From a virus (taxonomy: Duplodnaviria > Heunggongvirae > Uroviricota > Caudoviricetes), in IMG/VR virus record IMGVR_UViG_2740892426_000003: a stretch of 34,274 bases of DNA. The stretch is one strand, 5' to 3'. The translations under genes were made by a program, and so were the position numbers. This document shows positions 1 through 34,274 of the stretch, piece by piece. Every line of letters starts with the position of its first letter. The first letter of the stretch is position 1. Below the pieces are notes generated by a model, which saw nothing but the letters and a program-made list of their open reading frames with translations, did no database searches and was not told the DNA's origin.

Positions 1-1200
1 ATGCTGACCGATACCAAGCTGAAAAACCTCAAAGCGCGGGAAAAACTTTATAAAGTTGCAGACCGTGATGGGCTGTATGTAACCGTATCTCCCAAGGGAT
101 TGGTGACGTTTCGCTATGACTATCGAATCAATGGTCGTCGTGAAACGTTAACGATTGGTCGCTATGGTGACGGTATTTCTCTGGCGCAGGCGCGCGAAAA
201 ATTAGTGGAAGCTAAAAAACGCGTAAATGCAGGAATATCGCCCGCTGGAGAGAAGCGTGACGGTAAAACAAAGCGAAAAGAAGAAAAGACACTCCACGAT
301 TTTACCGTCAGCTACATGAAACACACCCGGCTGGCGGACAGCACAAGGGCGATGAAGCAAAGCATTATCGACAGAGACATCACCCCAGTATGGGGGCGCA
401 AGCTGCTGTCAGAGATAACCCCCTCTCTCCTACGTGAGTATTGCGATAAGATAAAAGCGCGTGGTGCGCCAGCGACGGCGATTCAGGTTCGCAATATCGT
501 TAGTGCGGTATTTAAGTTCGCCGCGCTTCACGGCGACTATTACCCCAATCCTGCCGAAGAGGTTTTACCGGCTTCAATTGCGACATTCGAAGCGCGCGAC
601 AGGGCGCTCAAGCCAGAGGAGATAGGCTGGTTTTTCAATCAGCTTGAACAAACGGGTACATTACCCACCATCAAGCTGGCCATTAAATTGGTTTTATTAA
701 CGATGGTGCGTAAAAGTGAACTGCTGAACGCGCCGTGGGGTGAGGTTAATTTTAATGCCTGCCTTTGGACGATTGACGCCAGCCGGATGAAGGGATCACG
801 GGATCATAATGTTTATCTGTCCCGGCAGGCACAGGACATTCTGATTGCCCTGAAAATGTGCGCAGGAAGCAGTGATTGGGTTTTGCCTTCATGCAATCAG
901 TCGTCGCATAAGACCATGTCGGCGGCGACCTTAAACCGGGTCATTAATCTTACGGTTAAGCAGGCGCAGGAACGGGGGATCAGGCTGGCGTCGTTTTCCG
1001 TTCACGATATGCGCCGAACGGCCTCGACGTTATTGCATGAGGCGGGGTTTAATTCCGACTGGATAGAAAAATGCCTCGCGCACGAGGAAAGAAGCGTCAG
1101 AGCCGTTTATAACAAAGCGGAATACGCAGAGCAGCGCCGTGATATGTTGCAGCAGTGGGCGGATATGGTTGATGGGTGGATCAAGCAATACCGCCCGTAA
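1..1200 (+). CDS. int: P4-type tyrosine integrase (site-specific recombinase)
   Basis: 399-aa ORF beginning at window position 1. N-terminus (TDTKLKNLK...DGLYVTVSPKG...) is typical of P4-family integrases; C-terminal catalytic region has HDMRRT (H-x-x-R) and a downstream Tyr (RAVYNKAEY). Family assignment from recalled sequence patterns. Confidence 0.9.
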   Translation: MLTDTKLKNLKAREKLYKVADRDGLYVTVSPKGLVTFRYDYRINGRRETLTIGRYGDGISLAQAREKLVEAKKRVNAGISPAGEKRDGKTKRKEEKTLHDFTVSYMKHTRLADSTRAMKQSIIDRDITPVWGRKLLSEITPSLLREYCDKIKARGAPATAIQVRNIVSAVFKFAALHGDYYPNPAEEVLPASIATFEARDRALKPEEIGWFFNQLEQTGTLPTIKLAIKLVLLTMVRKSELLNAPWGEVNFNACLWTIDASRMKGSRDHNVYLSRQAQDILIALKMCAGSSDWVLPSCNQSSHKTMSAATLNRVINLTVKQAQERGIRLASFSVHDMRRTASTLLHEAGFNSDWIEKCLAHEERSVRAVYNKAEYAEQRRDMLQQWADMVDGWIKQYRP

Positions 1201-1203
1201 GTA

Positions 1204-1470
1204 CTATGCGGGGATCTTGGTACCAGAGCGCTTTGGTGCTTTGGCCAGATTCTTCTGTACCGCACTATCAATATGGTAATGGTTACTTTCCTGCCGAGTC
1301 TTGAGCCAGCGTTCCACTTCCTCTTTGTCCCACGCGACGGCGCGCTTCGTTAGCGCAAAACGTTTGGGAAACAGGCCTTTTTGCTCCAACGCATAAATCG
1401 TACTTTCAGAGAGTGGCACCATCTGTAAAAGCACGTTTTTTCTAATGGCAATTTTCATTGTTTTCCCCAT
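1204..1470 (-). CDS. alpA: AlpA/Vis-family phage transcriptional regulator/excisionase-like protein
   Basis: 88-aa ORF convergent with int; core LSESTIYALEQKGLFPKR...VAWDKEEVERWL matches the AlpA HTH signature (STIYR...G.FP.P...G.R.V.W...EV..W). True start may be an internal Met (MKIAIRK). Confidence 0.75.
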   Translation of the reverse strand: MGKTMKIAIRKNVLLQMVPLSESTIYALEQKGLFPKRFALTKRAVAWDKEEVERWLKTRQESNHYHIDSAVQKNLAKAPKRSGTKIPA

Positions 1471-1819
1471 GCCGTTCGGCGTTCAGGTGTTGCCACTGCG
1501 CTGCAATCCGCTTCATCACCGCATTCCCCTCCGGGATCACCTCCTGCGGCTCTTTCATCAACATTATCCGCCCCCGGATAACGATCAGCGCCTGTTCCAG
1601 CAGGTCATAGTCCAGATAACAGAGGTCGGGAATATCCAATTGCCACACGTAGCCATTCCATGCAGAAAGCAGTACCTGCGCAGCCGCGCGTCCGCCGGTG
1701 GTTTCTGTGAGAGCAACGTCGACAAGGGTATTGACAGCAAGGCGGTATTCCTCTGGCGCTACGCAAAGTCTTTGTCGTTGGGTTTCTTGCGTTGCCAGAG
1801 CCTTAAATATTTCGTTCAT
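1442..1819 (-). CDS. hypothetical protein (between primase and alpA)
   Basis: 125-aa ORF co-oriented with primase and alpA and overlapping the alpA start; no recognisable motif. Confidence 0.5.
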   Translation of the reverse strand: MNEIFKALATQETQRQRLCVAPEEYRLAVNTLVDVALTETTGGRAAAQVLLSAWNGYVWQLDIPDLCYLDYDLLEQALIVIRGRIMLMKEPQEVIPEGNAVMKRIAAQWQHLNAERHGENNENCH

Positions 1820-1828
1820 AACATTTCC

Positions 1829-4483
1829 TTATCGTTGAAAAACCCAACACTTCACTGTCGCCGGGCGGCGCGATGCGGCTGGGTAACGGCGGTTAAATTC
1901 AGCGTTGATGCCGCTGTTAACCGTTCTGACTTCAATAAACTTGTGGGTACGGCTGGTTTTCAGTACCCGCTTTAAATCGCTGACTGGTGGGATCTGCTGG
2001 CGACGTTCGGTGGCCAGTTGAATAAAGTGGTTAAGGTTGACGGCGATAAGCTGTTCATCGCGCGAGTGGTTAAGCTGCGGTTCGTCGTCGCCATCGAGGA
2101 AGTCGAAAATATCCCAGAACTCCTGTACCAGAGGATGGTCGGCGCTGATAGCCTGCTGGCGTTCCAGACTGAGCTGGATAAACATTTCTCTGGTGGCCTG
2201 TAGCTGTTCCTCCGTGACCGGAATAACCAGCGCCAGCGCGTCGAGCAGCGCCATAAGCTGGGCGTGGTTTTTAATGATGCGGATATGGCGAATATCGGGG
2301 TGGGCGTGAAGCTGCTGCTCGTATAGCGGGATCTGCCGGTTGACGCACTCCAGCACGGCCTGTTCCGCCAGCGCTGCCTTCAGCATAAAGCCGGAAAGCA
2401 GCTCCACCGGCAGGCGTTCGAGCTGCTCGGCAGCGACCTTGGTCTGAGTATTCTGGCCGCTGCGGTCGGTGTACAGGTGAATAATACGTTCCAGCACCGG
2501 GTTAGAGGCGCTGACGTCGGCGTTTTGCGCAATTACAATCGCGCCCCGGAACGGCGGTTCATAGGTCTCGTTACCGCTGTTACGCAGACCGCGAGAACGT
2601 ACCGACCGCCCGTTGTAGGCGGTTTTCAGCTCTTCCCAATCAAAGCCGCGCTGTTTTGCACCCTCCTGATTACGGTCACCCTCGATCAGCACTACCGGCA
2701 TATTCGCCACCTGCGCAAAGTTGCGCGCGCGGGCGGCCAGCGTTGATTTAGACGGATCGAAACCTTCATAGTCGCGTCGACCCAACAGTTTCCAGAGGAA
2801 CTCTATCAGCGTGGTTTTACCGCTGCCGGGTTCGCCGACGATTTCCAGAAACGGAAAGCTCTTGTGCTTGTCGCGGATCTGTTCTGCAAACATCGTCCCA
2901 AACCAGAACGCCAGCGCCACAAAGCCCTTTGCGCCAAACGCCTGCCAGAGTAACTGGGGCCACTGGCTGTCCATCTGTTTTAAATTGTCGTTCAGCGTCA
3001 GGCTGACCGACTGGTTCAGGCTTTTAAGGCTGAGTTTGCCCATGTCGAAGAAGTCTTCTTCGTTGAGCGCGTACAGCCGACCATCGCGAACGGCCAGATC
3101 GTTGAACACGTAAGCGCGGTATTCTTTGCTATAGCCGATAAAATCGGTGGTCTGGACGGTTTTGATTTTGGGAAGTTGCTTGAGCAGCAGCTTATCTAAC
3201 TGCTGACTAGTGCCAGTAAAGATGCCGCCCTGTGCGATATGCAGCAGGCGCTTTTTGAATTCTGAGCCGCTGGAAAGTTGGGAGCCGGTGAAGGTGTTTT
3301 TTATCGGCGGCGTGTCGTCCGGGAAGTTAATGCGAAAGTAATACCAGCTTTCGTCGGTGATGGTGTTGGCCTGATAGTAGAGGGCGGTCGGGTAGCAGTT
3401 GGCGATCTCCACCACGGCGGACGACTCTTTCAGCGCCTTCTGTTTCAGCTCTTCTTCGCTCAGGTCGTCATTGGAGAATGAGATACTTTCATGCACCCGC
3501 ATATAGCGGTCAATATCCAGCTTGAACCAGAACAGGCGGCTGTCAAACTCGAAGTGGAACTCTTTACGCTCTGTCTGTTCGTGCATCAGCAGGGCTTTGG
3601 CGGCGGGAGAGGTGGCGATCAGCAGAGAGCCGTAGTAGCGGTATTTCTTCACTAGCTCTGGGTTAAGCCGGTCGCGTTGGTGCAAATCGTTCCAGTCCAG
3701 CTTGCTGCGGGAATGCGGCGTCTGTGCGGCGGCTGCGCTCCAGCCTTCGTCCCGGCTGCGCTTTACCCATCGCCGGGTATAGCTCATGCCCGCCTTGTCG
3801 TTATCCAGCGCCCATACCAGTAAAGGGCGCTTTTTATCCACGAACAGCGCGGCCAGTTGGTTTAACGCCTGCGCCGGATAGTTGTTGCAGGTCATCAGGG
3901 AAACGGCGGCGATGCCGTGGTGGTGCAGGGCGATAGCGTCAAAAATGCCCTCAACCAGCCAGATCTCCTGCTGCCCTTCCAGCTTCAGCGTTGGCAATTG
4001 CCACCATAGCCCGCTGTAAGCGCCGTGAAAATTGGCTTTGCGATCGCCGAAACGCTGCGGGCGGTCAACGATCCGCTCCCACCACACGCCGTCAGCCAGC
4101 GGGAAACGCACGGTGGCCGAGCCGATATCGCGCCGTGCGTCGTAGTAGTTCTCTTGAGCGTAACAGTCACGGATCAGCGAAAGATCAAAGCCGCGCATCT
4201 CGCGCAGGTAGGCATCGGCGGCGGCCTGTGGGTTTTCCGGGGTTGGGGGATATCTGTCTGACCAGCTTTCAAACAGTTCCGGGTACACCTCTTTGATATG
4301 GATTTCGGCATTGCATTTATTCAGACGACCGCAGCGCAGTACCCACGGGCTGATGGCGTTGGTGTATAGCTCCTTTTTCTGGCAGTCCGGGCAGACGCCC
4401 TGCCGCAGCCAGTCGCCCTGTTCTTTAAAGGAAAAGTCGGCCAGCAGTCGCCGCGTAATTTCCTGATGAAGTTGTGGTTGCAT
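1829..4483 (-). CDS. P4 alpha-like DNA primase-helicase (zinc-binding primase N-terminus, Toprim, D5/SF3-like NTPase)
   Basis: 884-aa ORF; N-terminal Cys cluster (CPDC...C..C), Toprim-like LVEGIFDAIALHHHG, Walker A GEPGSGKTT and Walker B-like VVLIEGD. Architecture as in satellite P4 alpha and PICI pri-rep proteins. Confidence 0.85.
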   Translation of the reverse strand: MQPQLHQEITRRLLADFSFKEQGDWLRQGVCPDCQKKELYTNAISPWVLRCGRLNKCNAEIHIKEVYPELFESWSDRYPPTPENPQAAADAYLREMRGFDLSLIRDCYAQENYYDARRDIGSATVRFPLADGVWWERIVDRPQRFGDRKANFHGAYSGLWWQLPTLKLEGQQEIWLVEGIFDAIALHHHGIAAVSLMTCNNYPAQALNQLAALFVDKKRPLLVWALDNDKAGMSYTRRWVKRSRDEGWSAAAAQTPHSRSKLDWNDLHQRDRLNPELVKKYRYYGSLLIATSPAAKALLMHEQTERKEFHFEFDSRLFWFKLDIDRYMRVHESISFSNDDLSEEELKQKALKESSAVVEIANCYPTALYYQANTITDESWYYFRINFPDDTPPIKNTFTGSQLSSGSEFKKRLLHIAQGGIFTGTSQQLDKLLLKQLPKIKTVQTTDFIGYSKEYRAYVFNDLAVRDGRLYALNEEDFFDMGKLSLKSLNQSVSLTLNDNLKQMDSQWPQLLWQAFGAKGFVALAFWFGTMFAEQIRDKHKSFPFLEIVGEPGSGKTTLIEFLWKLLGRRDYEGFDPSKSTLAARARNFAQVANMPVVLIEGDRNQEGAKQRGFDWEELKTAYNGRSVRSRGLRNSGNETYEPPFRGAIVIAQNADVSASNPVLERIIHLYTDRSGQNTQTKVAAEQLERLPVELLSGFMLKAALAEQAVLECVNRQIPLYEQQLHAHPDIRHIRIIKNHAQLMALLDALALVIPVTEEQLQATREMFIQLSLERQQAISADHPLVQEFWDIFDFLDGDDEPQLNHSRDEQLIAVNLNHFIQLATERRQQIPPVSDLKRVLKTSRTHKFIEVRTVNSGINAEFNRRYPAASRRPATVKCWVFQR

Positions 4484-4571
4484 TGCCAGTACCTTTATTC
4501 AGGTAATACTTACCCGTCGCACAGACACGTTGTTTATGCGTTGTGGTTGTGAGTCTTTTATTTACTGAGTG

Positions 4572-4802
4572 TTACGCGATTTTCTGCTTTTGCAGAAATT
4601 GCCCGCGTGTGGATAGCGGGATGTGTATCTTAGGATTCGGGCAACCGCTCGGTACCACTGTTCCCATCACGGTTTCCATTGCGATAAATGAAAACGAACA
4701 GTTAACGTTTTTGCACTGGTAATAGAGCTTACGTACCAGCGGTGACATATATTCGCTGCTGCGAATTATCGCCTTACCGTCGCAGTGTGGGCATTTCATC
4801 AT
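4572..4802 (-). CDS. ogr: Ogr/Delta-family zinc-finger late transcription activator
   Basis: MMKCPHCDGKAIIRSSEYMSPLVRKLYYQCKNVNCSFSF has the CxxC...CxxxxC zinc-finger of P2 Ogr. Start set at the ATG-ATG pair preceded by AAGGAGA; the ORF-track start at 4820 is probably an upstream overextension. Confidence 0.85.
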   Translation of the reverse strand: MMKCPHCDGKAIIRSSEYMSPLVRKLYYQCKNVNCSFSFIAMETVMGTVVPSGCPNPKIHIPLSTRGQFLQKQKIA

Positions 4803-4838
4803 GTCCTGTCTCCTTACCACTTTTAACTAACTGAAACA

Positions 4839-5045
4839 CTAACGCTTTTCGTTAACGGACTGACGAAATAGTGTGATGCCGTTCAAAAAAATGATTCTTG
4901 CCATGCTGGACATCGAACGGTTCTGATCCAGCGCTAATGCTTCCAGTTCCGCGATTTCAGCGGGGAGCAGGCGCATTGCCACCGGTTTGTTCGACATCAC
5001 CCCGCGAGGCGCTCTTGAGCGTAAGACGTTCTCATTTGTTTTCAT
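4839..5045 (-). CDS. small ribbon-helix-helix (CopG/Arc-like) DNA-binding protein, first gene of the leftward ogr-primase transcription unit
   Basis: 68-aa ORF 18 nt upstream of ogr. VAMRLLPAEIAELEALA...RSMSSMARIIF looks like an RHH beta-strand plus helices. Divergent from the HTH gene across an 80-bp control region. Start may be internal. Confidence 0.5.
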   Translation of the reverse strand: MKTNENVLRSRAPRGVMSNKPVAMRLLPAEIAELEALALDQNRSMSSMARIIFLNGITLFRQSVNEKR

Positions 5046-5125
5046 GGTGGTATATTGTGGTTATTAACATTACACAATCTATAATTCCCTCAATTGAGTG
5101 AATTGTCAATGGTAATTATATCCAA

Positions 5126-5461
5126 ATGAAAGAATTTGGCATCCGTTTGAAGGAAGAACGTATCCGACTTGGACTTGATCAAGACGGCTTTGGACAACTT
5201 GGGGGCGTGAAGAAAAACGCACAAAGCAACTATGAGAATGGGTTGCGCAAGCCGGACAGTGACTATCTTGCTGGCATAGCGGCAGCGGGAGTTGATGTTC
5301 TGTATGTTCTAACAGGCAACCGCACGCCTGTGGTTACGTTGTCCAGTAAAGAGAGTGTGTTGGTGGAAAACTATCGTTCTGCTACGCCAGAACACCAGTC
5401 CACCCTTGACACGGTTAGCGCTGCGCTTGCGCAACCGATGAATTGTCGAAAAGTACAATGA
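5126..5461 (+). CDS. XRE-family helix-turn-helix transcriptional regulator (possible prophage repressor)
   Basis: 111-aa ORF; N-terminal GIRLKEERIRLGLDQDGFGQLGGVKKNAQSNYENGLRKPDSDYLAGIAAAGVDVLYVLTG is a Cro/C1-type HTH. First gene of a three-gene plus-strand operon. Confidence 0.75.
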   Translation: MKEFGIRLKEERIRLGLDQDGFGQLGGVKKNAQSNYENGLRKPDSDYLAGIAAAGVDVLYVLTGNRTPVVTLSSKESVLVENYRSATPEHQSTLDTVSAALAQPMNCRKVQ

Positions 5462-5491
5462 TTTATTAAATTCAGCTTATTAGGAGTAATT

Positions 5492-6580
5492 ATGGCAAAT
5501 GTCGGCTTTTCTTTTGAGGGGGTGATGATTGAAAGAATTATTGCTCATCGAATCTTCCCAAGGTCTCCCGATAAGCAAATGGTTCCACCTAAGTTAAGTA
5601 ATCAGTTAATAACGTTAGAACAAGATGCTTTGGATGCACTACAGGTTCGTATAACAGAAGCCTTAGGTAATAAATCTCATGGCATTGAAATGTCTATCAC
5701 TGATACCGGTGATGATAGTTTTTTTGCACTGACAACGTCTGTACTACATGTTGAAGGCGAATCATTTATTAACGTATCTAAGCGATTGGCGCATAAGTTA
5801 ACAGAAGCTCAATATAGTGCGGGGAAGGTTTCCGGTGGTGTGTTAGTAATCATTACGGGAAAAATTGGTGAACAAGCCTGCCCATTCTTTGCTGTACTGC
5901 GTGCTGAAATGCAAAACGGATTTCGGACCAATGATACCCCAGAGAAAATAGCGATGGAGTATATTGCTGACTTATTACTTACACCAACTCAGCGGCTTTA
6001 TAAAATAGGAGTGTTGATTGAGTGTGAGTCAGGCCATGAATTGATTGATGGTCGTTGTGATACGCAATATTATCGTTCATTTTTATTTGATCACTTGATG
6101 ACATCGACGGAAACTAAAAATGCTGCGGGGTATTTTTACAGTGTTTTTCTTGGAATGGGGATCGAAAAATCCTCCAAGAAATTGACGCAGGATTTTTTTG
6201 AACATACTCGAAATTTCATTAATCAGGCTCCAGTTGATGAGGAAACTAAGTTTGATTTACACGAGTCATTACGTTCTGAACTGAGAAGTCAGAAAGCAAC
6301 TTTGAGTACCGCTTCGTTTGCTACGGAACATCTTCCTCAAGAATTACAGACGAGCTATCAGTCATTTATGGCTCAAAAAGGTTTTCCGCAGAATGCAGTG
6401 TCTAAAGATACTGATTATATTAAGAAAAAGCTTCGTCGTAGAAGTAAATTAGTGTTTACAAGCGATGTATGGATATCCATACCACCAGATCAAGTAAAAG
6501 AACTGGTACAGATTGAACAAACAGATGATGATGAGTCAACTACACTTAAAGTCAAAGGGCGGTTGAAAAGTCAAGAATGA
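5492..6580 (+). CDS. NA37/YejK (NdpA)-like nucleoid-associated-protein-family protein; candidate DNA-binding sensor or antitoxin component
   Basis: 362-aa ORF with RBS TAGGAG upstream. By-eye similarity to E. coli YejK recalled from memory: I..H.I near the N-terminus, a GG-hydrophobic stretch (SGGVLVIITG), FLGMG...DFF, and C-terminal F..KG...TL.VKG. Very AT-rich relative to flanking phage genes. Stop overlaps the next start (ATGA). Confidence 0.55.
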   Translation: MANVGFSFEGVMIERIIAHRIFPRSPDKQMVPPKLSNQLITLEQDALDALQVRITEALGNKSHGIEMSITDTGDDSFFALTTSVLHVEGESFINVSKRLAHKLTEAQYSAGKVSGGVLVIITGKIGEQACPFFAVLRAEMQNGFRTNDTPEKIAMEYIADLLLTPTQRLYKIGVLIECESGHELIDGRCDTQYYRSFLFDHLMTSTETKNAAGYFYSVFLGMGIEKSSKKLTQDFFEHTRNFINQAPVDEETKFDLHESLRSELRSQKATLSTASFATEHLPQELQTSYQSFMAQKGFPQNAVSKDTDYIKKKLRRRSKLVFTSDVWISIPPDQVKELVQIEQTDDDESTTLKVKGRLKSQE

Positions 6581-7578
6581 TGAGTATAGAGGATTTTAGA
6601 CGTTATCTGGTTGAAAACCATGCTGCTTATGAAGCATGGGGTAAACATATTGCGTCTGAAATCAATGCGGCTTTGATTGAACAACTTGGTGAAGGGGCCG
6701 CCCAGCTCTTCATCAAGGTACCACCCACTCCGAGAGTTAAAGGTATCGAGTCCGCATTAGGGAAGGTTGGTCGTAAAGGTTATAACAACCCTGTTCAGCA
6801 GATGACGGATCTCGTTGGCGTTCGTTTTGTCGTTTTACTTTCTGAAGATATTGAGACAATCTGTAAAATCATTCAGAATAATGAACAATGGATAGCTGTT
6901 GTTTCTAAAGATTATCAGGATGAAATAGAGGTAAACCCTAAACTATTTGATTATCAATCAAAGCATTTTGAAATAAGGCCAAAGATAAATAGCGTTATAT
7001 CGGGAGTTAATATTACAACTGATATGTGCTGTGAAGTACAAATTAGAACATTATTGCAGCATGCGTATGCAGAATTAGTTCATGATAGCGTTTATAAACC
7101 TGTTGGCCCCGTACCGAAAAAAGCGGAGCGCCAAATTGCGCGTAGTATGGCTTTGATGGAAACAACAGATGAATTATTTTGTAATACAATGCGGCTTTTA
7201 TGTGATACTAATAAACCAAGAAATGATTTTTTAAAGGAGTTAAAAGATTTTTATATAAATAAAATTGGGAGGCAGTATTTAAATCAGGAAGATAAAATAA
7301 ATTATTGTTTTTTAGATGAGTATAGGTCGTTTATACAAGAAGATCTTTTGACTAATCTAATCGACCTTCTTGATAAGAAAAAATATATATCATATAAAAT
7401 CCAACAAAGGGCTACTGCCAATCTTTTTTTTGCGCAGCCAGTGGTCATTTTTACTTACTGGCTGGCAATAAATGAAGACAGTAATAAATTACAGCAAGAA
7501 TGGCCGTTACCTGGATATTTGAACGAATTGAGAATGATTTTAAGTGATGTTGGTGTAAGTAGCGGTATTGGATATTAA
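6577..7578 (+). CDS. RelA/SpoT-homologue nucleotidyltransferase (small-alarmone-synthetase/toxSAS-like) with ~150-aa C-terminal extension
   Basis: 333-aa ORF. Synthetase-domain motifs are visible: PRVKGIESALGKVGRKG, TDLVGVRFVV, and CEVQIRTLLQHAYAE (the E-[IV]-Q-I-R-T...H...AE signature). C-terminal third is K/N-rich, AT-rich and unassigned. Translationally coupled to the upstream gene. Confidence 0.8.
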   Translation: MMSIEDFRRYLVENHAAYEAWGKHIASEINAALIEQLGEGAAQLFIKVPPTPRVKGIESALGKVGRKGYNNPVQQMTDLVGVRFVVLLSEDIETICKIIQNNEQWIAVVSKDYQDEIEVNPKLFDYQSKHFEIRPKINSVISGVNITTDMCCEVQIRTLLQHAYAELVHDSVYKPVGPVPKKAERQIARSMALMETTDELFCNTMRLLCDTNKPRNDFLKELKDFYINKIGRQYLNQEDKINYCFLDEYRSFIQEDLLTNLIDLLDKKKYISYKIQQRATANLFFAQPVVIFTYWLAINEDSNKLQQEWPLPGYLNELRMILSDVGVSSGIGY

Positions 7579-8681
7579 TCTTCCAGCCCCAACTCACACT
7601 CCACCGCCGTCCCATACCCACTGCTGTTATCCAACGTATGCACACACCGCGTAATCACCCACGCGGTGCCGTCAATCTCCGCCTTAAACCCCTTAACCTG
7701 CAGTGGTAATTCCGGGAACAAATCGGGCCGTCCACGCGCAAGATTCAGGCTGAACGTTGCCGCGCCGCGCTGTAATTGCTCCCACGCGCTTTTTGCCGCC
7801 CGGTAGGCGTTATTTTTGTTGGCATAGGTGTGGCGCAACACCTTGATATTTCCCTCTTCGCCTACCATCACGTTATCGGCGTTGAATGAGGCGTCTGATG
7901 GGGGAGATTCCGTTGGTTGCGTTTGCGGACGATTTTTCCGTGTCTTGCGCTTCACGTCAGTGGACTGCTTTTTAGCCTGCCGCGTATCCAGCCAGTAGGC
8001 CGTAACGCCGGTATAGGCTTCCCTGTCCGCGATGCTGAACCGGTGACTGTCGCCGTCCTCGCGGGTAATGGTTGCGACCGGCAGCGGCTTTCCGCTGGCG
8101 CTTTTACCGGAACCTGTCGGCATCAGTAACAGAGCATCATTTTTCACGCAGGCGATAGCGCCGTGCATTTGCGCCAGCCGGGTCAGGAAGGAGGCATCGG
8201 ATTCGTTAGTCTGGTCAACGTGCTCAATGGCGATCCCAGCCAGCTCGCCGCTGACGGTTGATTCCAGCTTATGGCGCGCCGCCACGGTTTGCACAATCGC
8301 GCCCAGCGTCACATCATGGTAGCTCTGTTCCCGTTTAACGTTCAGCGAATCGCGGAAATCGGCGCTGCGGGCGCGGAGGCTGAGTACGTCCGGTGCGCCG
8401 CTGTGCTCCAGTTCGTCCACGGTGAAGACATTCTGGTGCATCACGCCGTCACCCTTCCAGCCCAGAGAAACCGTTAGCTTTTCGCCCTTTGCCGGAAACG
8501 CCAGCAGGCCGTCGCTGTCGTCCAGTTCGAGCTGCAGTTCGTCGGCCTCAAAGCCCCGGTTGTCGGTGATACGCAGGCTGATTAAGCGGTTGTCCAGATT
8601 CCGCGTAATGTCCTTACCATTCAGCACCACGCTGTACTCCGGCTGCGGTTGGGCGTTTAAGAGTGCGTTTAACATCGTCAT
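7575..8681 (-). CDS. D: tail protein D (late control gene D, P2 gpD-like)
   Basis: 368-aa ORF at the 3' end of the E-T-U-D tail operon; gene order and length as in P2. Confidence 0.85.
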   Translation of the reverse strand: MTMLNALLNAQPQPEYSVVLNGKDITRNLDNRLISLRITDNRGFEADELQLELDDSDGLLAFPAKGEKLTVSLGWKGDGVMHQNVFTVDELEHSGAPDVLSLRARSADFRDSLNVKREQSYHDVTLGAIVQTVAARHKLESTVSGELAGIAIEHVDQTNESDASFLTRLAQMHGAIACVKNDALLLMPTGSGKSASGKPLPVATITREDGDSHRFSIADREAYTGVTAYWLDTRQAKKQSTDVKRKTRKNRPQTQPTESPPSDASFNADNVMVGEEGNIKVLRHTYANKNNAYRAAKSAWEQLQRGAATFSLNLARGRPDLFPELPLQVKGFKAEIDGTAWVITRCVHTLDNSSGYGTAVECELGLED

Positions 8682-9106
8682 AGTCCGTCTACCATCGTGA
8701 TGATGTCGCCCAGCAAGCCACCCAGCTTCGGCGGATCGACACGTTTTAACGCCAGCGTAAACTCAATGCGCCGGGCCGCACCGTCGCGAAAAAAGACGCT
8801 CCGGGTGACGTTCAGACTCTCAATCACAAACCAGCCATGCAGCGAGCCGGTGCCTTCAATCAGCGGCCACGCCATCCCCTGATCGGCCATCTTACGCAGG
8901 AAAAACAGGGTAAATCGCCCGCCGGTCAGTTCCGGCAACAGCACGCCGTTTAGCGTAATGGTTTCGTCACCCACGCCGATAAACTGGCTGGCCGGACGTA
9001 GCCCCACGCGGGAACTGGCAGGATGCCGCCACGCTACGGCGTGCTGCATATCCTGATAGGGCAGGGTTTTCAGGCTGAAGACGAACAGCCCCAGTACCAT
9101 CATCAT
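8678..9106 (-). CDS. U: tail protein U (P2 gpU-like)
   Basis: Start set at the internal ATG-ATG-ATG (MMMVLGLFVFSLKT...) preceded by TAAGGAG and overlapping the T stop; the ORF-track start at 9214 would run into gene T. Confidence 0.85.
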   Translation of the reverse strand: MMMVLGLFVFSLKTLPYQDMQHAVAWRHPASSRVGLRPASQFIGVGDETITLNGVLLPELTGGRFTLFFLRKMADQGMAWPLIEGTGSLHGWFVIESLNVTRSVFFRDGAARRIEFTLALKRVDPPKLGGLLGDIITMVDGL

Positions 9107-9116
9107 CTCATTCTCC

Positions 9117-11963
9117 TTAGTCGATATCGCGCAGGCTGCTGCGGGTTCTGGCGGCATTCTGCCGTTCGCGCTTGTCCAGTTCCTGCGCCACCAGTTTCGC
9201 CAGTTGTTGTTCATTCATGCCGGGAGCGGCGTGGATGTGAATAGTGACTGGCCCGCCGCTGGCTGCCGGTGCAGAAAGGGATGCTGGCGCGAGCGGGGCG
9301 CGATTATCCGGCAGGGCGGCGATAGGGGGCATGGCGACAGCGGCGGCGCTGAGCGTCAGCCCGGCACCGGCGGCGATTAACTGCTTCGAGAGTTGCCCTA
9401 CGCTGGCCAGCGCCGTTTGCGTGTTGTCCTCAATCCCGACCGCCAGCCCGTCCACGGTATAGCGGCCCATTTCGGCGAACACCCGCGACGGTGAATGAAT
9501 ACCGAGCTTGTCCTTAAACCAGTTGGAAATATTGCTGCCCAGATCCAGCACGCCCTGTTTAATCGCTTCCCATTTGGCAAAGATCCCCTGTTTCAGCCCT
9601 TCCATGATATTGCCGCCGATCTCGGTAAAGCGGGTGGACAGGTTACTGAAACTGTTCAGAACGTTATCCCAGACTGTGGTAAACACCGTGGACAGGTTCC
9701 AGTTGGTGAAAAAAGCAATGATGGCATTCAGGGCAGTGCTGACGGTGGTTTTAATTCTCTCCCAGATACCGGTGGCGGTAGTGGTAATGCCCGTCCATAT
9801 TTGTCCCAGAAATGCCACCACGCTGTTCCACGCCTCAACGGTCGTCGCTTTGATAGTATCCCAGTGCTGGTAAATCAGACCGGGCAGCGTCCAGTTCAGC
9901 AGGATATTCACCAGTCCGTCCCAGCAGCCGAAGAGAAACGTTTTAATCCCTTCCCAGACGGCGCTGGTTGTGGCTTTTACGCTGTTCCACGCATCGCTGC
10001 ATACCTGCTTAAAACTATTCCAGAGCGCGGCGAACTTCGGCCCCAGCCAGTCCCAGTTACTCCAGATCCAGATGGCGGCACCGGCGATCAGCGCAATCAC
10101 CACCAGAATCGGGTTAGCCATCATTGCGCGACCCAGCCAAATTACCGCTTTTCCCGCGCCTTTAAAGGCATTCGCCAGCAGCCCCAGCGCGCTGCTGCCC
10201 TTAATACCGAGCACCGACAGGCTGAGTTTTAGCGCCGCCATCGGGCCGAGGATACCGGCAAGCGTCAGGGATATGCCTCCGAGCGCCACGGCGAACGCGC
10301 CGATCGCCATGCCGATTTTCACCAGCGTGGCGGTTAGCTGCGGGTTGGCCTTTACCCACTGGCCGAGACGTTCCGCCATTCGTCCCAGCCATTCGGTAAG
10401 CTGTTTTAAATCCGGTGCAACGGTTTCACCAATGGCGGCCAGCGAGTTGGTAAAGGTACCGGAGGCCGCTTCCCATAAGTTTTTCAGGGTGCCTAGCTGT
10501 TCATTAACTCGCTGCTGCAGCGACGCCTGCGCGCTCATTTTCCCCTGAACGTCGTTATATCCGGCTGAGCCTTTCTCAATCAACAGGGAGATAACCTGCA
10601 GCGTCTCGGCATCGTCGCCGTAGAGGGATTTGATAATGCCGAGGCGGGTTTCCGTATTCAGGTCTTTCAGCTTATCCAGTTGCTTAAACATGTTATCCAG
10701 CCCGCCAAATTCCCCTTTGCCGTCGCTGAAACTAAGCTGAATATTCTGGCCCATTTTTGCCAGTTCATTGTTTACCTCTTTAATGTTGTCGGTATCCATG
10801 GATTTCTGGAATACCTTGCGGAAGGCGTTCCCGGCTGCGTCGCCGCGCATCCCGGCCTGATCGGCCATTACCAGCAACGGAGCCAGTGACTTAGCGCCCT
10901 CCAGCCCCTTGACTTTGATGATATCCATCGCGGCGGACATTTTGGCGAAGCCGTTGAGCATATTGTTGGCGTCCACGCCGAGGTAGTAGCTTTTCTGGAT
11001 CACGTCCATCAGCGACATCATGTCTTTTTCTGATGTACGGGTCGCATCCTGCATTTTGGCGGCAAACTCGGCAGCGGCTTCGGAAGGCATCTGGAGCTGC
11101 ACACCCAGATAAGCGGTCGCCTCACCCAGTCCGCCGAGAATGGACTGCGCCGACATCCCCTGCCTGCGTAACATAGTCATCATGTTCTGGAAGTCGGCAG
11201 TGGTGCCGGGGAGCCTGTCGCCCAGCGTCACGGCCAACTGGTTGATGGCTTCAAATTCGGGCAGGACGCCACTGGCGCCCATCATGGAAACCTTGAGCTG
11301 CGTTGAGGCGTTTTCCAGTTCGGCATAGGCTTTTACCGGAACCGCCAGTGTCATTCCGGTCGCGGTGCCGGTTGCCATCATGCCAGCGCCAAAGCCCGCC
11401 AGCTTGTTGCGGGCATCGATAGTTCCCGCGTAGCTGGATTTGGCGGAGTTCATCTTTTTCTGCTGCTGATTTAGGCGATTGAGTAACCGTTCTTGTTCTT
11501 TTAATTTTGTGTTATAGCGTTCAGTCTCCGTTTTTATTCTGACGGTAGCCTTTTCCCCCGCCTGCGTAGAAATACCCAGTCGATAGAGTTCCGCCCGTAA
11601 TTTGCCCATCTGAGTTATTTCTTGCTGTTGCTTATGTTCGAGCTGGCTGACTGTTCGCCACTGTCGTTCCAGCGCCTTTGTCTGCTTTTGTGTGGGGTTA
11701 TCCATTGCAGACATTTCGCGCGTCATCATCTGGGCTTTGAGACGAGCTTGATCCAGCTCTGTACCAAGCTGTTTAGTTGAACTCTTTAAACTATTAAATG
11801 TGGCTAATTGACCACTGGCCTGATTCAGTGCTTTGAGCTGGTTCCGTGTTTCTTTTAACGCACGGGCGGTTTCACCGCTGCCCTGCGTGACGGCTTTTAG
11901 CGGGCGGGTGATTTTATCTACGGCGCTGAGTAGTACCTGTAAACGAAGGTTTTGTGTGCTCAT
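9117..11963 (-). CDS. T: tail tape measure protein (P2 gpT-like)
   Basis: 948-aa ORF immediately downstream of E/E', with coiled-coil N-terminal half and hydrophobic central segments; start overlaps the E' stop (ATGA). Confidence 0.9.
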   Translation of the reverse strand: MSTQNLRLQVLLSAVDKITRPLKAVTQGSGETARALKETRNQLKALNQASGQLATFNSLKSSTKQLGTELDQARLKAQMMTREMSAMDNPTQKQTKALERQWRTVSQLEHKQQQEITQMGKLRAELYRLGISTQAGEKATVRIKTETERYNTKLKEQERLLNRLNQQQKKMNSAKSSYAGTIDARNKLAGFGAGMMATGTATGMTLAVPVKAYAELENASTQLKVSMMGASGVLPEFEAINQLAVTLGDRLPGTTADFQNMMTMLRRQGMSAQSILGGLGEATAYLGVQLQMPSEAAAEFAAKMQDATRTSEKDMMSLMDVIQKSYYLGVDANNMLNGFAKMSAAMDIIKVKGLEGAKSLAPLLVMADQAGMRGDAAGNAFRKVFQKSMDTDNIKEVNNELAKMGQNIQLSFSDGKGEFGGLDNMFKQLDKLKDLNTETRLGIIKSLYGDDAETLQVISLLIEKGSAGYNDVQGKMSAQASLQQRVNEQLGTLKNLWEAASGTFTNSLAAIGETVAPDLKQLTEWLGRMAERLGQWVKANPQLTATLVKIGMAIGAFAVALGGISLTLAGILGPMAALKLSLSVLGIKGSSALGLLANAFKGAGKAVIWLGRAMMANPILVVIALIAGAAIWIWSNWDWLGPKFAALWNSFKQVCSDAWNSVKATTSAVWEGIKTFLFGCWDGLVNILLNWTLPGLIYQHWDTIKATTVEAWNSVVAFLGQIWTGITTTATGIWERIKTTVSTALNAIIAFFTNWNLSTVFTTVWDNVLNSFSNLSTRFTEIGGNIMEGLKQGIFAKWEAIKQGVLDLGSNISNWFKDKLGIHSPSRVFAEMGRYTVDGLAVGIEDNTQTALASVGQLSKQLIAAGAGLTLSAAAVAMPPIAALPDNRAPLAPASLSAPAASGGPVTIHIHAAPGMNEQQLAKLVAQELDKRERQNAARTRSSLRDID

Positions 11964-24918: not shown

Positions 24919-25089
24919 ATGTCAAGTGAAAAGGCTAAAACAGATCAGTACCAACTTCGTCTTGCTCATGAATTTAGAAAGCAGCTTGAAGAACAGGCTC
25001 GTAAAGATGGAGATACCTCTCTCGCAACATGGATAAAACGCGTTTTGCGTAAGGAACTTCAGTCACGAGGTATTGAACCCAAAGGATAA
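24919..25089 (+). CDS. Arc/MetJ-type ribbon-helix-helix DNA-binding protein (56 aa; below the ORF-track size cutoff)
   Basis: Hand translation MSSEKAKTDQYQLRLAHEFRKQLEEQARKDGDTSLATWIKRVLRKELQSRGIEPKG; the strand-then-two-helices pattern resembles Arc repressor. Confidence 0.65.
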   Translation: MSSEKAKTDQYQLRLAHEFRKQLEEQARKDGDTSLATWIKRVLRKELQSRGIEPKG

Positions 25090-25190
25090 TTACGGAGATA
25101 TCAAGCAGCGCTAAGAAGTTAGGATTATTTGTTCAGCCCAGATTAGTCGATATGCACTGATTAACTTAAACATTGTGTGTAGGAGGTGTT

Positions 25191-25844
25191 GTGGATATTG
25201 AATTTTTTCTTAAAGAGCGCACAAGATTCGTTACTTATTTCTATGAAACGGCTGCTGCACCATTTGTTAACATCATGAATGATATTGAGAATGAAGTGGA
25301 ACCTTATATTCAGCCGTATGGTGAGAGTGATGAACCAGCTTTTTTAGATGAATGGTTAGATGCAAAGTCGGGATTAGAAACCTGTGGGCACCATGCATTA
25401 TCGATGCTTTCGTCTTCTCTTCAGTTGTACCTGAAGGCGTGGGTAGATCGCTTAGGATATCATAGCGTGAAATCTGATATAAATTTCAAGAAGGGTTGGT
25501 TTAATGGCTATCGTGAAATTTTCAACAAAATTGAGTTGGAAATGGCAAAATGTCCTGCAAATTTGGAAATAATTGAACAAATTCCCTTGGTGAGAAATCG
25601 TGTCCAGCATCCTGAGGAACTTACCTCAATTAATATTTCTCACTCAAAAAATGACTTGGAAAAATATCCTCGCCCATACTTTATTCAGGAGTGTGAGCTA
25701 CTTTTGGCTTCCGAACAGGAAGAAAAATCGTGGTTATTCCCACCTACAATATCCCCGACTAAAGAGAAAATATTCGAAGCTATCAGAAATGTTGAAATGC
25801 TGTGCTCTTGGTTAGAGTCTGAGTATTGGTCGGCTCTTGACTAA
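25191..25844 (+). CDS. hypothetical 217-aa protein, AT-rich orphan cargo (candidate effector or toxin partner of the upstream RHH)
   Basis: Start set at GTG 4 nt after a consensus AGGAGG (ORF track begins at TTG 25173). Markedly AT-rich versus the flanking head and lysis genes; no motif recognised. Confidence 0.65.
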   Translation: MDIEFFLKERTRFVTYFYETAAAPFVNIMNDIENEVEPYIQPYGESDEPAFLDEWLDAKSGLETCGHHALSMLSSSLQLYLKAWVDRLGYHSVKSDINFKKGWFNGYREIFNKIELEMAKCPANLEIIEQIPLVRNRVQHPEELTSINISHSKNDLEKYPRPYFIQECELLLASEQEEKSWLFPPTISPTKEKIFEAIRNVEMLCSWLESEYWSALD

Positions 25845-25879
25845 ATGTAGAATAGAGTAAGTCAGCGTCAAATGAAAAC

Positions 25880-25897
25880 AGCCCGACGAATCGGGCT
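25880..25897. terminator. hairpin terminator between convergent cargo genes
   Basis: 7-bp stem AGCCCGA/TCGGGCT with CGAA loop; T-rich on the minus-strand side, A/T-rich on both sides. Confidence 0.45.
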
Positions 25898-25933
25898 ATT
25901 ATGGCTATCAGGCAAACACTACCTTCAAACTCA

Positions 25934-26170
25934 TTATGCCGCCTCAATACCCGCTCTGGTTAACATATAGTGGCCCCAGTGGGTTTTCTTCAGATAACCG
26001 GCCAGTTCCATCTGTGTCACAATAAATTCAGCGTTAACTATTTCTATATCTGCGTAGTCGGCCAGATCGCGCAGCGGCCATGTGCTGCGAACGCCGACGC
26101 TAACTATGGTATCTCTGATGCGGCGAGCGGTATCGGTCATTGGGCGGGTTCTGGCTGCCTGAATAGTCAT
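25934..26170 (-). CDS. hypothetical small protein, possible winged-helix DNA-binding protein
   Basis: Start set at ATG (MTIQAARTRP...) preceded by GGGGA; immediately downstream of L. Confidence 0.45.
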   Translation of the reverse strand: MTIQAARTRPMTDTARRIRDTIVSVGVRSTWPLRDLADYADIEIVNAEFIVTQMELAGYLKKTHWGHYMLTRAGIEAA

Positions 26171-32263: not shown

Positions 32264-32308
32264 CCCCAACAACGACCAGCTCCCCATCAGCGCCACCACG
32301 CGCCATTC

Positions 32309-32332
32309 AGCCCGCTTCCTGCGGGTTTTTTT
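32309..32332 (+). terminator. rho-independent terminator after the P-Q operon
   Basis: Stem CCCGC/GCGGG with TTCCT loop followed by a run of 7 T, about 45 nt after the Q stop. Confidence 0.5.
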
Positions 32333-32582
32333 ACGCCTTCTCACCGCCAGAATCCCCAGCCAGCACCGCCAGCGCGCGGTTGTGACCCCGCCACGCCTGC
32401 GCAGTAAATAGATCGCTTTTTTTGCACTGGTGCGTAAGCGTCGGAGCGGGCCATAACGGGAGGGCGTGGTCGGGTTGCAGGTGCAGCAGAATCATGCGGA
32501 TTTATGCGCCCTGTGTATGCGGCAGAGACGATCGGGAGGACAATGCCACGATCCTTTTGGTATTTTTGGATCGCCTGTCGGG

Positions 32583-32864
32583 AAAAGGTAACCTCAGTAA
32601 TTGGCAGTAAAAATAATGCTTATTTTATTGTTTATAAAAGAGAAATTTAGTTACCCCTAAAAGGTAATCTGAGGTAACCCAAAAGGTAACCTGTTTTATA
32701 TTTTCATATAAATCATAACGTTACCAATTAGAAGAGATCACTATTATAAAAGGTAACCTGATTACTCTTTGGTTACCAAAAGATTACCTTTCTCTGTTTT
32801 TGAAAAATCCTTTTTATTCATTAAGTTATTTTGATTTTTCGTTGCAGGTTACTAAGGTTACCTT
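32583..32864. repeat. iteron array: about 6 full and 3-4 partial copies of AAAGGTAACCT (both orientations) in AT-rich DNA
   Basis: Direct copies at about 32583, 32659 (AAAGGTAATCT), 32681 and 32748; inverted copies at about 32780 and 32854; partial cores at about 32671, 32719, 32770 and 32845. Some spacings are about 22 bp. Confidence 0.7.
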
Positions 32865-33135
32865 TTTCCGAAGCCCCCACGGACTTTGGTATATATAGAG
32901 AGGTTAAAAAGCAGTCATTATGTTTGCCAGCTATTTACTTCCCATTCTTCCACTGGCCAGCATGTTAATATGCCCGGTAGTGATAACTCGTTGCCGTTGG
33001 GTTACTTTCTTCTGTGGACGGTAAAATTGACGGTAAATTGGGTAGCGTGTCTCAATTTAGACTATTAAAATCAAGTAATTAAAGTGATTGTATATAATCG
33101 AGTGGGAATGATTTGACTCTGCACTATGAATGAAC

Positions 33136-33165
33136 AAAACCCTCTGTTACTACAGAGGGTTTTTT
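33136..33165 (-). terminator. hairpin terminator (potentially bidirectional) downstream of the exported coiled-coil protein gene
   Basis: 8-bp stem ACCCTCTG/CAGAGGGT with 6-nt loop, flanked by an A-run upstream and T-run downstream. Confidence 0.55.
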
Positions 33166-33203
33166 ATACTCACGAATCATAGGATTGAAGTTACTAACAT
33201 CGA

Positions 33204-33743
33204 TTAATTAAACCAGCTATCTGATTTATTCTCTTCTGCTTTGCCCACGCTTTTCATCAGATCGCGACCGCCTTCAGTCATATTCCTGTTTGCGTCAGCT
33301 TCAGATTGCACCACATCGGTTTGCGCAGCTTTGTGCTTCAGTTCCTGATCGATAAATTCGTTTTCTCGCTTAACGCGGGCTTCTTCTTTCGCCAGCGCCA
33401 GTTTTTGCTTCTGAATCTCTAAGCTGCGTAGCTCATCTTCATAACTTTGATCGCGTTTTTTGTCCGCAGTGGCTTCGGCGTCCAGTTTATCCTGACGAGC
33501 TTTCTTATTCGCCGCTGCCGTTGCCGCTCTTTTATTAGCCGCGGCCTGGGCGTTTGCGCGACGTTGCTTCTCTTGCTGGATTTCCCTGTTGCGCTCCGCG
33601 ACCCATTCGTCATGCTGCCTTTGCTCTTCATTTTTACCTTGCTGTTCCGCTTCTGCGACAGCCGAGAGTTGATCCTGCAATGATGAGGCGATAGCCGGAT
33701 AGCTTAAGGAGGCTAAGATGGCGCAAAGAAAAACTTTCTTCAT
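33204..33743 (-). CDS. exported (signal-peptide) charged coiled-coil protein, function unknown
   Basis: 179-aa ORF with N-terminal signal peptide and highly charged K/E/A/Q-rich helical region; unclear whether phage cargo or host. Confidence 0.6.
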   Translation of the reverse strand: MKKVFLCAILASLSYPAIASSLQDQLSAVAEAEQQGKNEEQRQHDEWVAERNREIQQEKQRRANAQAAANKRAATAAANKKARQDKLDAEATADKKRDQSYEDELRSLEIQKQKLALAKEEARVKRENEFIDQELKHKAAQTDVVQSEADANRNMTEGGRDLMKSVGKAEENKSDSWFN

Positions 33744-33758
33744 GACTCCTCCTGATCA

Positions 33759-34274
33759 TTAGCTCTTTTCAGGACATTTCGTATTTGGCTGAATACGCGT
33801 TTCGTTATACGTCGTGGTAATAACAACGGCTAAACCTGTCGTAAACTGGCACTCTTTACCCACCTGGGTGGAGGTATACACTTTGGTGCCTTCCTTATAC
33901 GTTAGAGAAACACCTTCCACTAAGGTTTTATCATTCACCATAGAACCCGCTGCCGCGCCAACAGCTCCGCCGCCAACTGCACCTGCCGTCGTTCCGGAAT
34001 TGCTGCCAGACCCCACGTTGTGGCCGATTACACCGCCAGCGACTGCACCAATAAGCGCGCCGAAGGCTTGTGCATTTCGTTTATTTTGGGCGTTGTCTAC
34101 GGCAACTTTTGCGGGAAGAATGGAAATAATATTAACGGTTTTAGTTTCTTGTTTGGTATTCAGTTGATCGGTTTGATAAACATCGGCGGCATGATCATCA
34201 GCATTTGACTGGCATCCTGCCAGAGTGAATGACGCTAACATTGCCACAGGCAGAAGACATTTTTTAAATTTCAT
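33759..34274 (-). CDS. glycine-zipper lipoprotein (predicted outer-membrane lipoprotein)
   Basis: 171-aa ORF starting at the last codon of the window; lipobox LAGC and a Gly-zipper segment (GALIGAVAGGVIGHNVG...GAVGGGAVGAAAG). Confidence 0.7.
   Translation of the reverse strand: MKFKKCLLPVAMLASFTLAGCQSNADDHAADVYQTDQLNTKQETKTVNIISILPAKVAVDNAQNKRNAQAFGALIGAVAGGVIGHNVGSGSNSGTTAGAVGGGAVGAAAGSMVNDKTLVEGVSLTYKEGTKVYTSTQVGKECQFTTGLAVVITTTYNETRIQPNTKCPEKS

Follow-up and report, generated by a model that had tools for sequence, protein, structure and literature searches.

A nucleoid-associated protein and a small alarmone synthetase form a probable type I PANGU anti-phage system in the cargo slot of a P2-like prophage

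The 34,274-nucleotide stretch of DNA analysed here, IMG/VR virus record IMGVR_UViG_2740892426_000003 (the window), is a P2-like prophage that carries a cassette of two overlapping genes, 5492-6580 and 6577-7578. Our analysis indicates that this cassette is probably a type I PANGU anti-phage system, in which a protein of the NA37/YejK family corresponds to the sensor Pag1A and a small alarmone synthetase of the GRel type corresponds to the effector Pag1B, the two being carried as prophage cargo and probably co-transcribed with the helix-turn-helix (HTH) gene in front of them. The initial annotation, made from the letters alone, was concerned with the second gene and considered that its C-terminal domain might be a fused phage sensor of the CapRel type. 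If our assignment is correct, what looked like an orphan domain on an alarmone synthetase becomes the receiver for a chromosome-bound sensor encoded next door, and therefore the finding is re-scoped to the two-gene cassette 5492-7578.

PANGU systems were defined in a preprint of April 2026 (bioRxiv 10.64898/2026.04.06.716658; hereafter the preprint). According to the preprint, type I PANGU combines a YejK-like nucleoid-associated sensor, Pag1A, with a toxic small alarmone synthetase (toxSAS) of the GRel subfamily, Pag1B, in which a helical linker connects the N-terminal synthetase with a C-terminal 'DMK' domain, the part to which the Pag1A dimer binds. Type I copies have been characterised from Ferrimonas futtsuensis and Pseudomonas aeruginosa (bioRxiv 10.64898/2026.04.06.716658). 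The preprint text gives no accessions, and the F. futtsuensis locus was recognised by 15 residue positions quoted in it. In F. futtsuensis DSM 18154 (our locus L104), the open reading frame (ORF) L104:5001-6017 has Y129, R258, E272, R279, R306, H314 and E337 (7/7), and the ORF upstream of it, read from MSFEFKN, has K6, E47, K52, K200, R203, K204, E278 and D282 (8/8). All 15 quoted residues being present, L104 is therefore the characterised system. Aligned with this Pag1B (Pag1B-Ff), the synthetase of the window has 30% identity over residues 2-328 (E 1e-54); for the NA37 protein and the corresponding Pag1A (Pag1A-Ff), identity is 34% over the full length (E 2e-71). The likeness extends to the organisation of the two loci. 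Both are overlapped two-gene operons with the same gene order, an NA37-like protein of at least 300 residues being encoded directly upstream of the synthetase, and the protein sizes are close (362 + 333 residues in the window, 355 + 338 in F. futtsuensis). Homology runs through the full length of both proteins, the catalytic residues, G-loop tyrosine included, are all kept, and synthetase, long helix and helical C-terminal domain follow one another in the same layout. What sets the window cassette apart is its location in the cargo slot of a P2-like prophage, behind a repressor-like gene. It also has no SLATT gene, unlike another Escherichia coli variant: an NA37 + GRel + SLATT arrangement, 34% identical, is present in five other E. 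coli genomes and is mentioned in the preprint as well. The cassette is possibly the 'PANGU-Ec' of the preprint.

For the effector gene, Pfam RelA_SpoT covers residues 53-174 of the product (E 1.7e-18, 67 bits against a cut-off of 27), and the synthetase signatures quoted in the initial annotation were all located: RVKG at 53, KVGRKG at 62-68, DLVGVRFVV at 78-86 and EVQIRTLLQHAYAE at 153-166. These motifs are not fortuitous, since the catalytic residues map one to one on Bacillus subtilis RelQ in HMMER alignments (R53=R46, K55=K48, D78=D72, R83=R77, Y126=Y116 in the G-loop, H130=H120, E153=E139 and Q155=Q141) and are invariant in a 40-member family alignment. The G-loop tyrosine Y126 is invariant in 86 of 86 proteins of a wider alignment, where it pairs with Y129 of Pag1B-Ff. 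Judged by its sequence, the protein is a genuine small synthetase of the RelA/SpoT type with a complete alarmone-synthetase active site. Its AlphaFold2 model has a predicted local distance difference test (pLDDT) value of 88 over the whole chain, and in a Foldseek search with the N-terminal 200 residues the best matches were RelQ/RelP structures (5dec, 6ewz, 6fgk; E ~1e-9, TM-score 0.77-0.85, ~22% identity). RelQ and RelP (PDB 5DEC, 6EWZ, 6FGK) are thus the closest solved structures, with the same catalytic residues and product class; they are homotetrameric, single-domain proteins of ~210-230 residues encoded by chromosomal stress-response genes, whereas the window protein has an extra C-terminal part of 150 residues and an NA37 partner and is encoded by mobile cargo. 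In line with this, the NCBIfam model GTPPhKinYjbM (RelQ/RelP-type) gave 48.9 bits, below its family threshold of 320.

At its full length, the synthetase belongs to a well-defined family. It is matched end to end by phrog_32462 (E 9e-129) and has 747 relatives in 5.8 billion proteins, the best 120 of which are nearly all 320-335 residues long with 97-100% query coverage. A conserved length of this kind, together with the single long helix (181-211) that joins the two domains in the model, shows that the C-terminal part is not a mis-joined gene. Other resources recognise the core alone. The PADLOC candidate PDC-S33 is matched at positions 52-176 of its 349-position profile (E 1.1e-13), which is the synthetase core, and a literature search for PDC-S33 gave nothing. 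Among GenBank phage records there were likewise only synthetase-core matches and no full-length family member, and sequence searches of the PDB with the NA37 protein and with the full synthetase found no PANGU structure in the copy searched.

Evidence that changes the interpretation of the synthetase comes from its neighbour. Pfam NA37 covers residues 17-356 of the upstream product (E 9.5e-15). The 4-nucleotide ATGA overlap between the two genes suggests their translational coupling, and the same overlapped junction is seen in homologous loci. In the first three distant homologues, from Aeromonas, Pseudomonas lurida and a Gallionellaceae metagenome-assembled genome, an NA37 gene abuts the synthetase gene, the neighbours of these loci being type I-F CRISPR genes, DarTG and HicAB, respectively. 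We then searched all ORFs of 59 loci from IMG/VR viral contigs and 51 loci from one-genome-per-species contigs with both window proteins. Both genes were present in 113 loci and were adjacent on the same strand in 111 of them, the other two being frameshifted copies. Adjacency was found in all 111 loci that have a full-length synthetase gene and upstream DNA; in the five loci without an NA37 gene, either the contig end cuts the locus or the synthetase gene is truncated. The pairing persists down to 28-31% identity and spans Gamma-, Beta-, Alpha- and Deltaproteobacteria, Bacteroidota, Verrucomicrobiota, Planctomycetota, Actinomycetota and Negativicutes. Furthermore, pairwise identities of the upstream and downstream proteins are strongly correlated (r = 0.94 for 86 non-redundant pairs). 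The cassette is a unit of two genes that selection maintains together. Homologues are found in defence or mobile contexts, including the 59 viral contigs. Decayed copies of the pair also occur, with genes frameshifted or split, in Neisseria gonorrhoeae DSM 9188 (L101), in Burkholderia sp. LMG 13014 (L102) and in one more locus (L043); L102 has a 5'-truncated synthetase gene without an NA37 gene upstream.

The C-terminal region matches nothing that the initial annotation recognised, and searches of Pfam, NCBIfam and PADLOC gave no assignment for the last ~150 residues either. The structure prediction and fold search that it had proposed gave a confident model and no relative. In the full model, the long linker helix leads into a domain of seven helices (213-324, ~120 residues); the domain-only model has a pLDDT of 88, and a fold search of the PDB found no match for it, CapRel entries being in the searched library. 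The invariant residues of the domain in the family are K268, Y294, W309, L311 and D324. Among 1.84 billion representative proteins, the domain was found only at about positions 210-330 of ~330-residue proteins or in fragments. We considered whether standalone proteins of ~137 residues in the representative library (P0132, P0140, P0142, P0145, P0148, P0152, P0171, P0176 and P0177) might be docking-domain decoys of phages; all of these domain-only hits start at the internal methionine of the invariant SMALMETTD motif and therefore are truncated gene calls. The link to PANGU was obtained with a hidden Markov model (HMM) built from the C-terminal domain of the clade alone, which matches residues 239-332 of Pag1B-Ff (27 bits, E 2e-7; best of 2000 shuffles, 5.5 bits). 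It follows that the C-terminal domain, even taken by itself, is a homologue of the Pag1A-docking domain. Most likely it is where the upstream-encoded nucleoid-associated protein docks, rather than a self-contained phage sensor. As to composition, the initial annotation was right in placing the most AT-rich DNA of the window here (the lowest-GC 460-nucleotide stretch, with a GC content of 0.30, begins at 6941, and residues 181-333 are encoded at 0.31). Its description of the tail as K/N-rich applies only mildly: in the last 153 residues K (12) and N (11) account for ~7-8% each, leucine is the commonest residue (20) and there is no low-complexity tract.

The reported biochemistry of the orthologues gives this architecture a possible function. 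According to the preprint (bioRxiv 10.64898/2026.04.06.716658), anti-phage activity needs both genes, neither gene is toxic alone, nor are the two together in uninfected cells, whereas a DNA-binding-defective Pag1A turns the pair toxic. The isolated synthetase domain of Pag1B is inactive, the upstream protein being both sensor and activator, and therefore the C-terminal domain does not act as an internal antitoxin. On its own, Pag1B is a tetramer, which Pag1A converts into a Pag1A2:Pag1B heterotrimer of reported structure, and together the two proteins produce AMP and (pp)pGpp from ATP and GTP, GDP or GMP, leaving tRNA unlabelled. Pag1A departs from the nucleoid during infection, and T4 escapes through mutations in denA (EndoII) (bioRxiv 10.64898/2026.04.06.716658). 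The initial annotation held that the substrate could not be read from sequence. Homology provides an answer: the synthetase of the window, whose fold is nearer to RelQ/RelP, would make (pp)pGpp and would not modify tRNA.

Carrying the steps over from the F. futtsuensis and P. aeruginosa orthologues, we infer by homology how the window copy might work. In an uninfected lysogen, the NA37 protein would be bound to chromosomal DNA and the synthetase would be kept as an inert oligomer. Degradation of the host chromosome by a superinfecting phage would free the NA37 dimer, which would dock on residues 213-333 of the synthetase and form the active complex. This complex would move pyrophosphate from ATP to GTP, GDP or GMP, so that nucleoside triphosphates would run down, (pp)pGpp would build up, transcription and translation would halt and the infection would be aborted. 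On this reading, the C-terminal domain would be an activator-docking module, neither a sensor of phage proteins nor an internal antitoxin.

Several observations weigh against so direct a transfer. Identity to the characterised pair is only 30-34%, and the residues that make the published contacts have largely diverged. In the alignment of 86 pairs, R258, R306 and H314 of Pag1B-Ff correspond to E255, N299 and E308 in the window, and mutation of these three residues together abolished binding in F. futtsuensis (bioRxiv 10.64898/2026.04.06.716658). Only R279 of the six alignable Pag1B contact residues is kept, as K274 (58 of 86 proteins have K or R there); E272 falls within an insertion specific to F. 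futtsuensis, and E337 aligns to Y333, the terminal residue of the window protein. On the sensor side, E47, K52, E278 and D282 of Pag1A-Ff are replaced by Q51, E56, Q283 and T287, and K200, R203 and K204, which contact DNA, by T206, K209 and N210, of which just K209 is basic; the R203 position is the sole one of the three that is generally basic in the family (67/86). The C-terminal domain has a net charge of -1 (isoelectric point, pI, ~5.5) compared with -9 (pI 4.6) in F. futtsuensis, and therefore it does not obviously fit the description as an acidic DNA mimic. The mean charge in the clade sharing at least 45% identity is -1.0, the family ranges from -12 to +3, and within the window protein there is a local acidic stretch at residues 238-266 (net -6). 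In addition, a promoter scan did not rise above chance, and the mechanism depends on a single preprint for which peer review is pending. On the other hand, the preprint reports pair-specific co-evolution, and therefore diverged contact residues neither exclude binding nor weaken the claim of homology. NA37-based defence as such is supported by a second group, which independently validated an E. coli defence that includes the YejK/NA37 protein WP_000355468.1 (391 residues, with an N-terminal zinc ribbon; DefensePredictor, Science 2026, PMC13092281), its NA37 system being unrelated to the window pair. In the pairwise alignments, K6 of Pag1A-Ff and E272 of Pag1B-Ff seemed to have been exchanged for E9 and K269 in a compensated charge swap, a candidate that we rejected given that E272 belongs to the F. 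futtsuensis-specific insertion. Charge covariation at the six published salt bridges was not found in the 86-pair family alignment.

Since the docking domain has neither a strong negative charge nor nearly any of the published contacts, the model in which a DNA mimic competes with DNA for the NA37 pore may not hold in the enterobacterial prophage clade, where another binding mode or perturbation of the nucleoid might take its place. We regard this as rather unlikely. A broader version of the same doubt is that the two-protein architecture has been preserved in this clade with a diverged trigger or output, that is, with another cue or with an acceptor such as adenine nucleotides. In addition to the loss of most F. 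futtsuensis interface and DNA-binding residues and to the change in charge, it could draw on position 127, where the window synthetase has Q next to the G-loop tyrosine and RelQ has an arginine (R117). However, the catalytic residues are all kept, as is the overall fold, similarity is continuous from the clade to F. futtsuensis, and the reported pair-specific co-evolution alone explains the divergent contacts. The preprint also describes defence by a two-gene 'NA37 + gRel' system of E. coli (bioRxiv 10.64898/2026.04.06.716658), and we consider divergence of trigger or output unlikely.

Another explanation is a classical two-gene toxin-antitoxin module, in which the synthetase would be a constitutive toxin neutralised through its C-terminal domain by a labile NA37 antitoxin. 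Other toxSAS subfamilies do act as toxins of toxin-antitoxin systems, a tight overlapped bicistron is typical of type II pairs, and some homologues lie among such modules (HicAB, DarTG). Yet the orthologous genes are non-toxic both singly and as a pair, it is the loss of DNA binding by Pag1A that makes the pair toxic, and in vitro the NA37 protein activates the enzyme (bioRxiv 10.64898/2026.04.06.716658). A partner of 362 residues with the NA37 fold is also unlike the known small antitoxins, and a toxin-antitoxin role thus appears quite improbable.

The CapRel analogy put forward in the initial annotation deserves separate consideration. CapRel(SJ46) (PDB 7ZTB, 9ERV) is likewise prophage-encoded, combines a RelA/SpoT-type fold with a C-terminal regulatory domain and follows an abortive-infection logic, and 7ZTB is a significant structural match to the N-terminal region of the window synthetase. 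To this extent, that is, in the extra regulatory domain and the defence-like setting, the analogy survives. In CapRel, however, a single gene encodes a protein whose C-terminal domain autoinhibits in cis and binds the phage capsid protein, and the target is the CCA end of tRNA; for the window protein, the corresponding explanation would be that its C-terminal domain binds a phage protein, for example a capsid protein, and so frees a tRNA-pyrophosphorylating toxin. The match to 7ZTB is far weaker than those to RelQ/RelP (E 1e-5; TM-score ~0.4 versus 0.8), the C-terminal domain is structurally unrelated to that of CapRel, and the N-terminal helix is acidic rather than basic (net charge -4). Moreover, the partner is a separate sensor protein that the initial annotation had missed and that is adjacent in 111 of 111 qualifying loci, hence obligate, while the orthologue makes (pp)pGpp, labels no tRNA and has an inactive isolated synthetase domain. 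We therefore abandon the idea of a self-contained single-gene system and of an autoinhibitory sensor within one fused protein, and consider a CapRel-like mechanism very improbable.

Finally, it is hardly probable that the alarmone synthetase and the DNA-binding protein have no defence role and tune the physiology of the host or the choice of the prophage between lysis and lysogeny: (p)ppGpp does influence phage development and the cassette belongs to the lysogeny-side transcription unit directly downstream of a repressor-like gene, but the same pair is found in many non-phage chromosomal defence islands, a sister prophage has exchanged it for a different NA37-centred cassette, as is typical of accessory defence cargo, and orthologues have been validated as defences.

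The features of the cassette and of the adjoining prophage genes are collected in Table 1. The two genes are the only ones in an AT-rich island between the HTH gene and gpD (GC content 0.35-0.39, compared with 0.56-0.58 in the flanks).

Table 1. Positions of the cassette, its domains and the neighbouring prophage genes in the window
Feature	Positions	Strand	Basis
Integrase	1-1200		
Toprim primase	1829-4483	-	
ogr	4572-4820	-	
Arc-like gene	4839-5045	-	PHROG 3431
XRE-type HTH gene, prophage backbone, probable immunity repressor	5126..5461	+	Pfam HTH_3, HTH_31; NCBIfam RstR-like; PHROG transcriptional repressor families
Variable cargo slot, AT-rich cassette	5438..7612	+	Alignment to E. coli GMF054 prophage; GC content
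Pag1A-like nucleoid-associated protein, NA37/YejK family, 362 residues; predicted DNA-bound sensor/activator	5492..6580	+	Pfam NA37, Pag1A homology
ATGA stop/start overlap of NA37 and synthetase genes, 4 nucleotides	6577..6580	+	Sequence CAAGAATGATGAGT
Pag1B-like GRel-type small alarmone synthetase, predicted effector, 333 residues	6577..7578	+	Pfam RelA_SpoT, phrog_32462, F. futtsuensis Pag1B homology, AlphaFold2
N-terminal helix (residues 4-37) and synthetase alpha/beta core (46-173) with catalytic residues	6577..7116	+	Alignments, model, Foldseek
Long linker helix (residues 181-211) with invariant SMALMETTDELF motif	7117..7212	+	DSSP on model; invariant columns
C-terminal domain (residues 213-333), all-alpha with 7 helices; predicted to dock Pag1A, 'DMK' homologue	7213..7578	+	Domain-only model, HMM
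gpD, start of tail genes	7575-8681	-	

The position of the cassette bears on its expression. The HTH gene, which is kept in the sister prophage, is separated from the cassette by 30 nucleotides, and no terminator-like site was found at 5461-5492, the terminator scan, like that for promoters, not being above chance. This arrangement suggests that the cassette is expressed in the lysogen, with the HTH gene as the likely source of its transcription. The analogy is with cI-rexA-rexB of phage lambda, where a two-gene abortive-infection module lies just downstream of the prophage repressor gene and is expressed by the lysogen; the proteins and the mechanism are unrelated, and in the window co-transcription with the HTH gene is a presumption. 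Between the divergent Arc-like and HTH genes lie 80 nucleotides in which both strands have promoter-like hexamers. This divergent gene pair looks like the immunity switch of the prophage, with the defence cassette on the repressor side.

The slot itself is variable, and it is all that distinguishes two near-identical prophages next to guaA. The prophage of E. coli GMF054 (L002) is 98.3% identical to the window over 1-5437 and 96.7% identical over 7613-10366, with nothing homologous in between. In its place, the sister slot (L002 7939-11035) encodes a DUF6037 protein, an NA37 protein 20% identical to that of the window and a protein of 418 residues whose N-terminal part is acidic and whose transmembrane helices are C-terminal, none of the three having a PADLOC match. 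This cassette looks like type II PANGU, which combines a nucleoid-associated protein with a membrane effector (bioRxiv 10.64898/2026.04.06.716658). We considered a shared sensor with swapped effectors; the two NA37 proteins being only 20% identical and the second one escaping the family HMM, it follows that whole cassettes were swapped and not effectors alone. The window cassette is rare in E. coli: among 5426 complete genomes, only those of L725 and CEC15 have it, in both cases in the guaA-adjacent prophage.

If these assignments are correct, two unrelated NA37-centred cassettes, whose effectors are a synthetase and a membrane protein, respectively, take turns in this slot, which would amount to a natural experiment in sensor-effector modularity. 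A P2-like prophage would also equip its host with the means to sense degradation of the host genome, which would be compatible with the prophage only if its own lytic cycle spares the chromosome. For annotation, pairs of this kind labelled 'GTP pyrophosphokinase' and 'nucleoid-associated protein' should carry a defence-system label; PADLOC 2.0 and Pfam do not yet recognise the pair as a defence system. The new observations are modest, namely a diverged near-neutral docking domain and a swap of type I and type II-like cassettes at one slot, but they could help to test how general the published mechanism is.

Two other regions of the window differ from their surroundings in composition. An ORF of 223 residues at 25173-25844 (+ strand) runs opposite to the surrounding late genes within a second low-GC island (~25000-26000, GC content 0.40); neither Pfam nor PADLOC matches it, and the prophage may have a second cargo (moron) slot in this region. 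Within 32500-34274, a third stretch of low GC content (0.37-0.42) precedes two ORFs resembling signal-peptide or lipoprotein genes at 33204-33743 and 33759-34274 (- strand). These ORFs look like host flank, and therefore the right end of the prophage is probably near 32300-33000.

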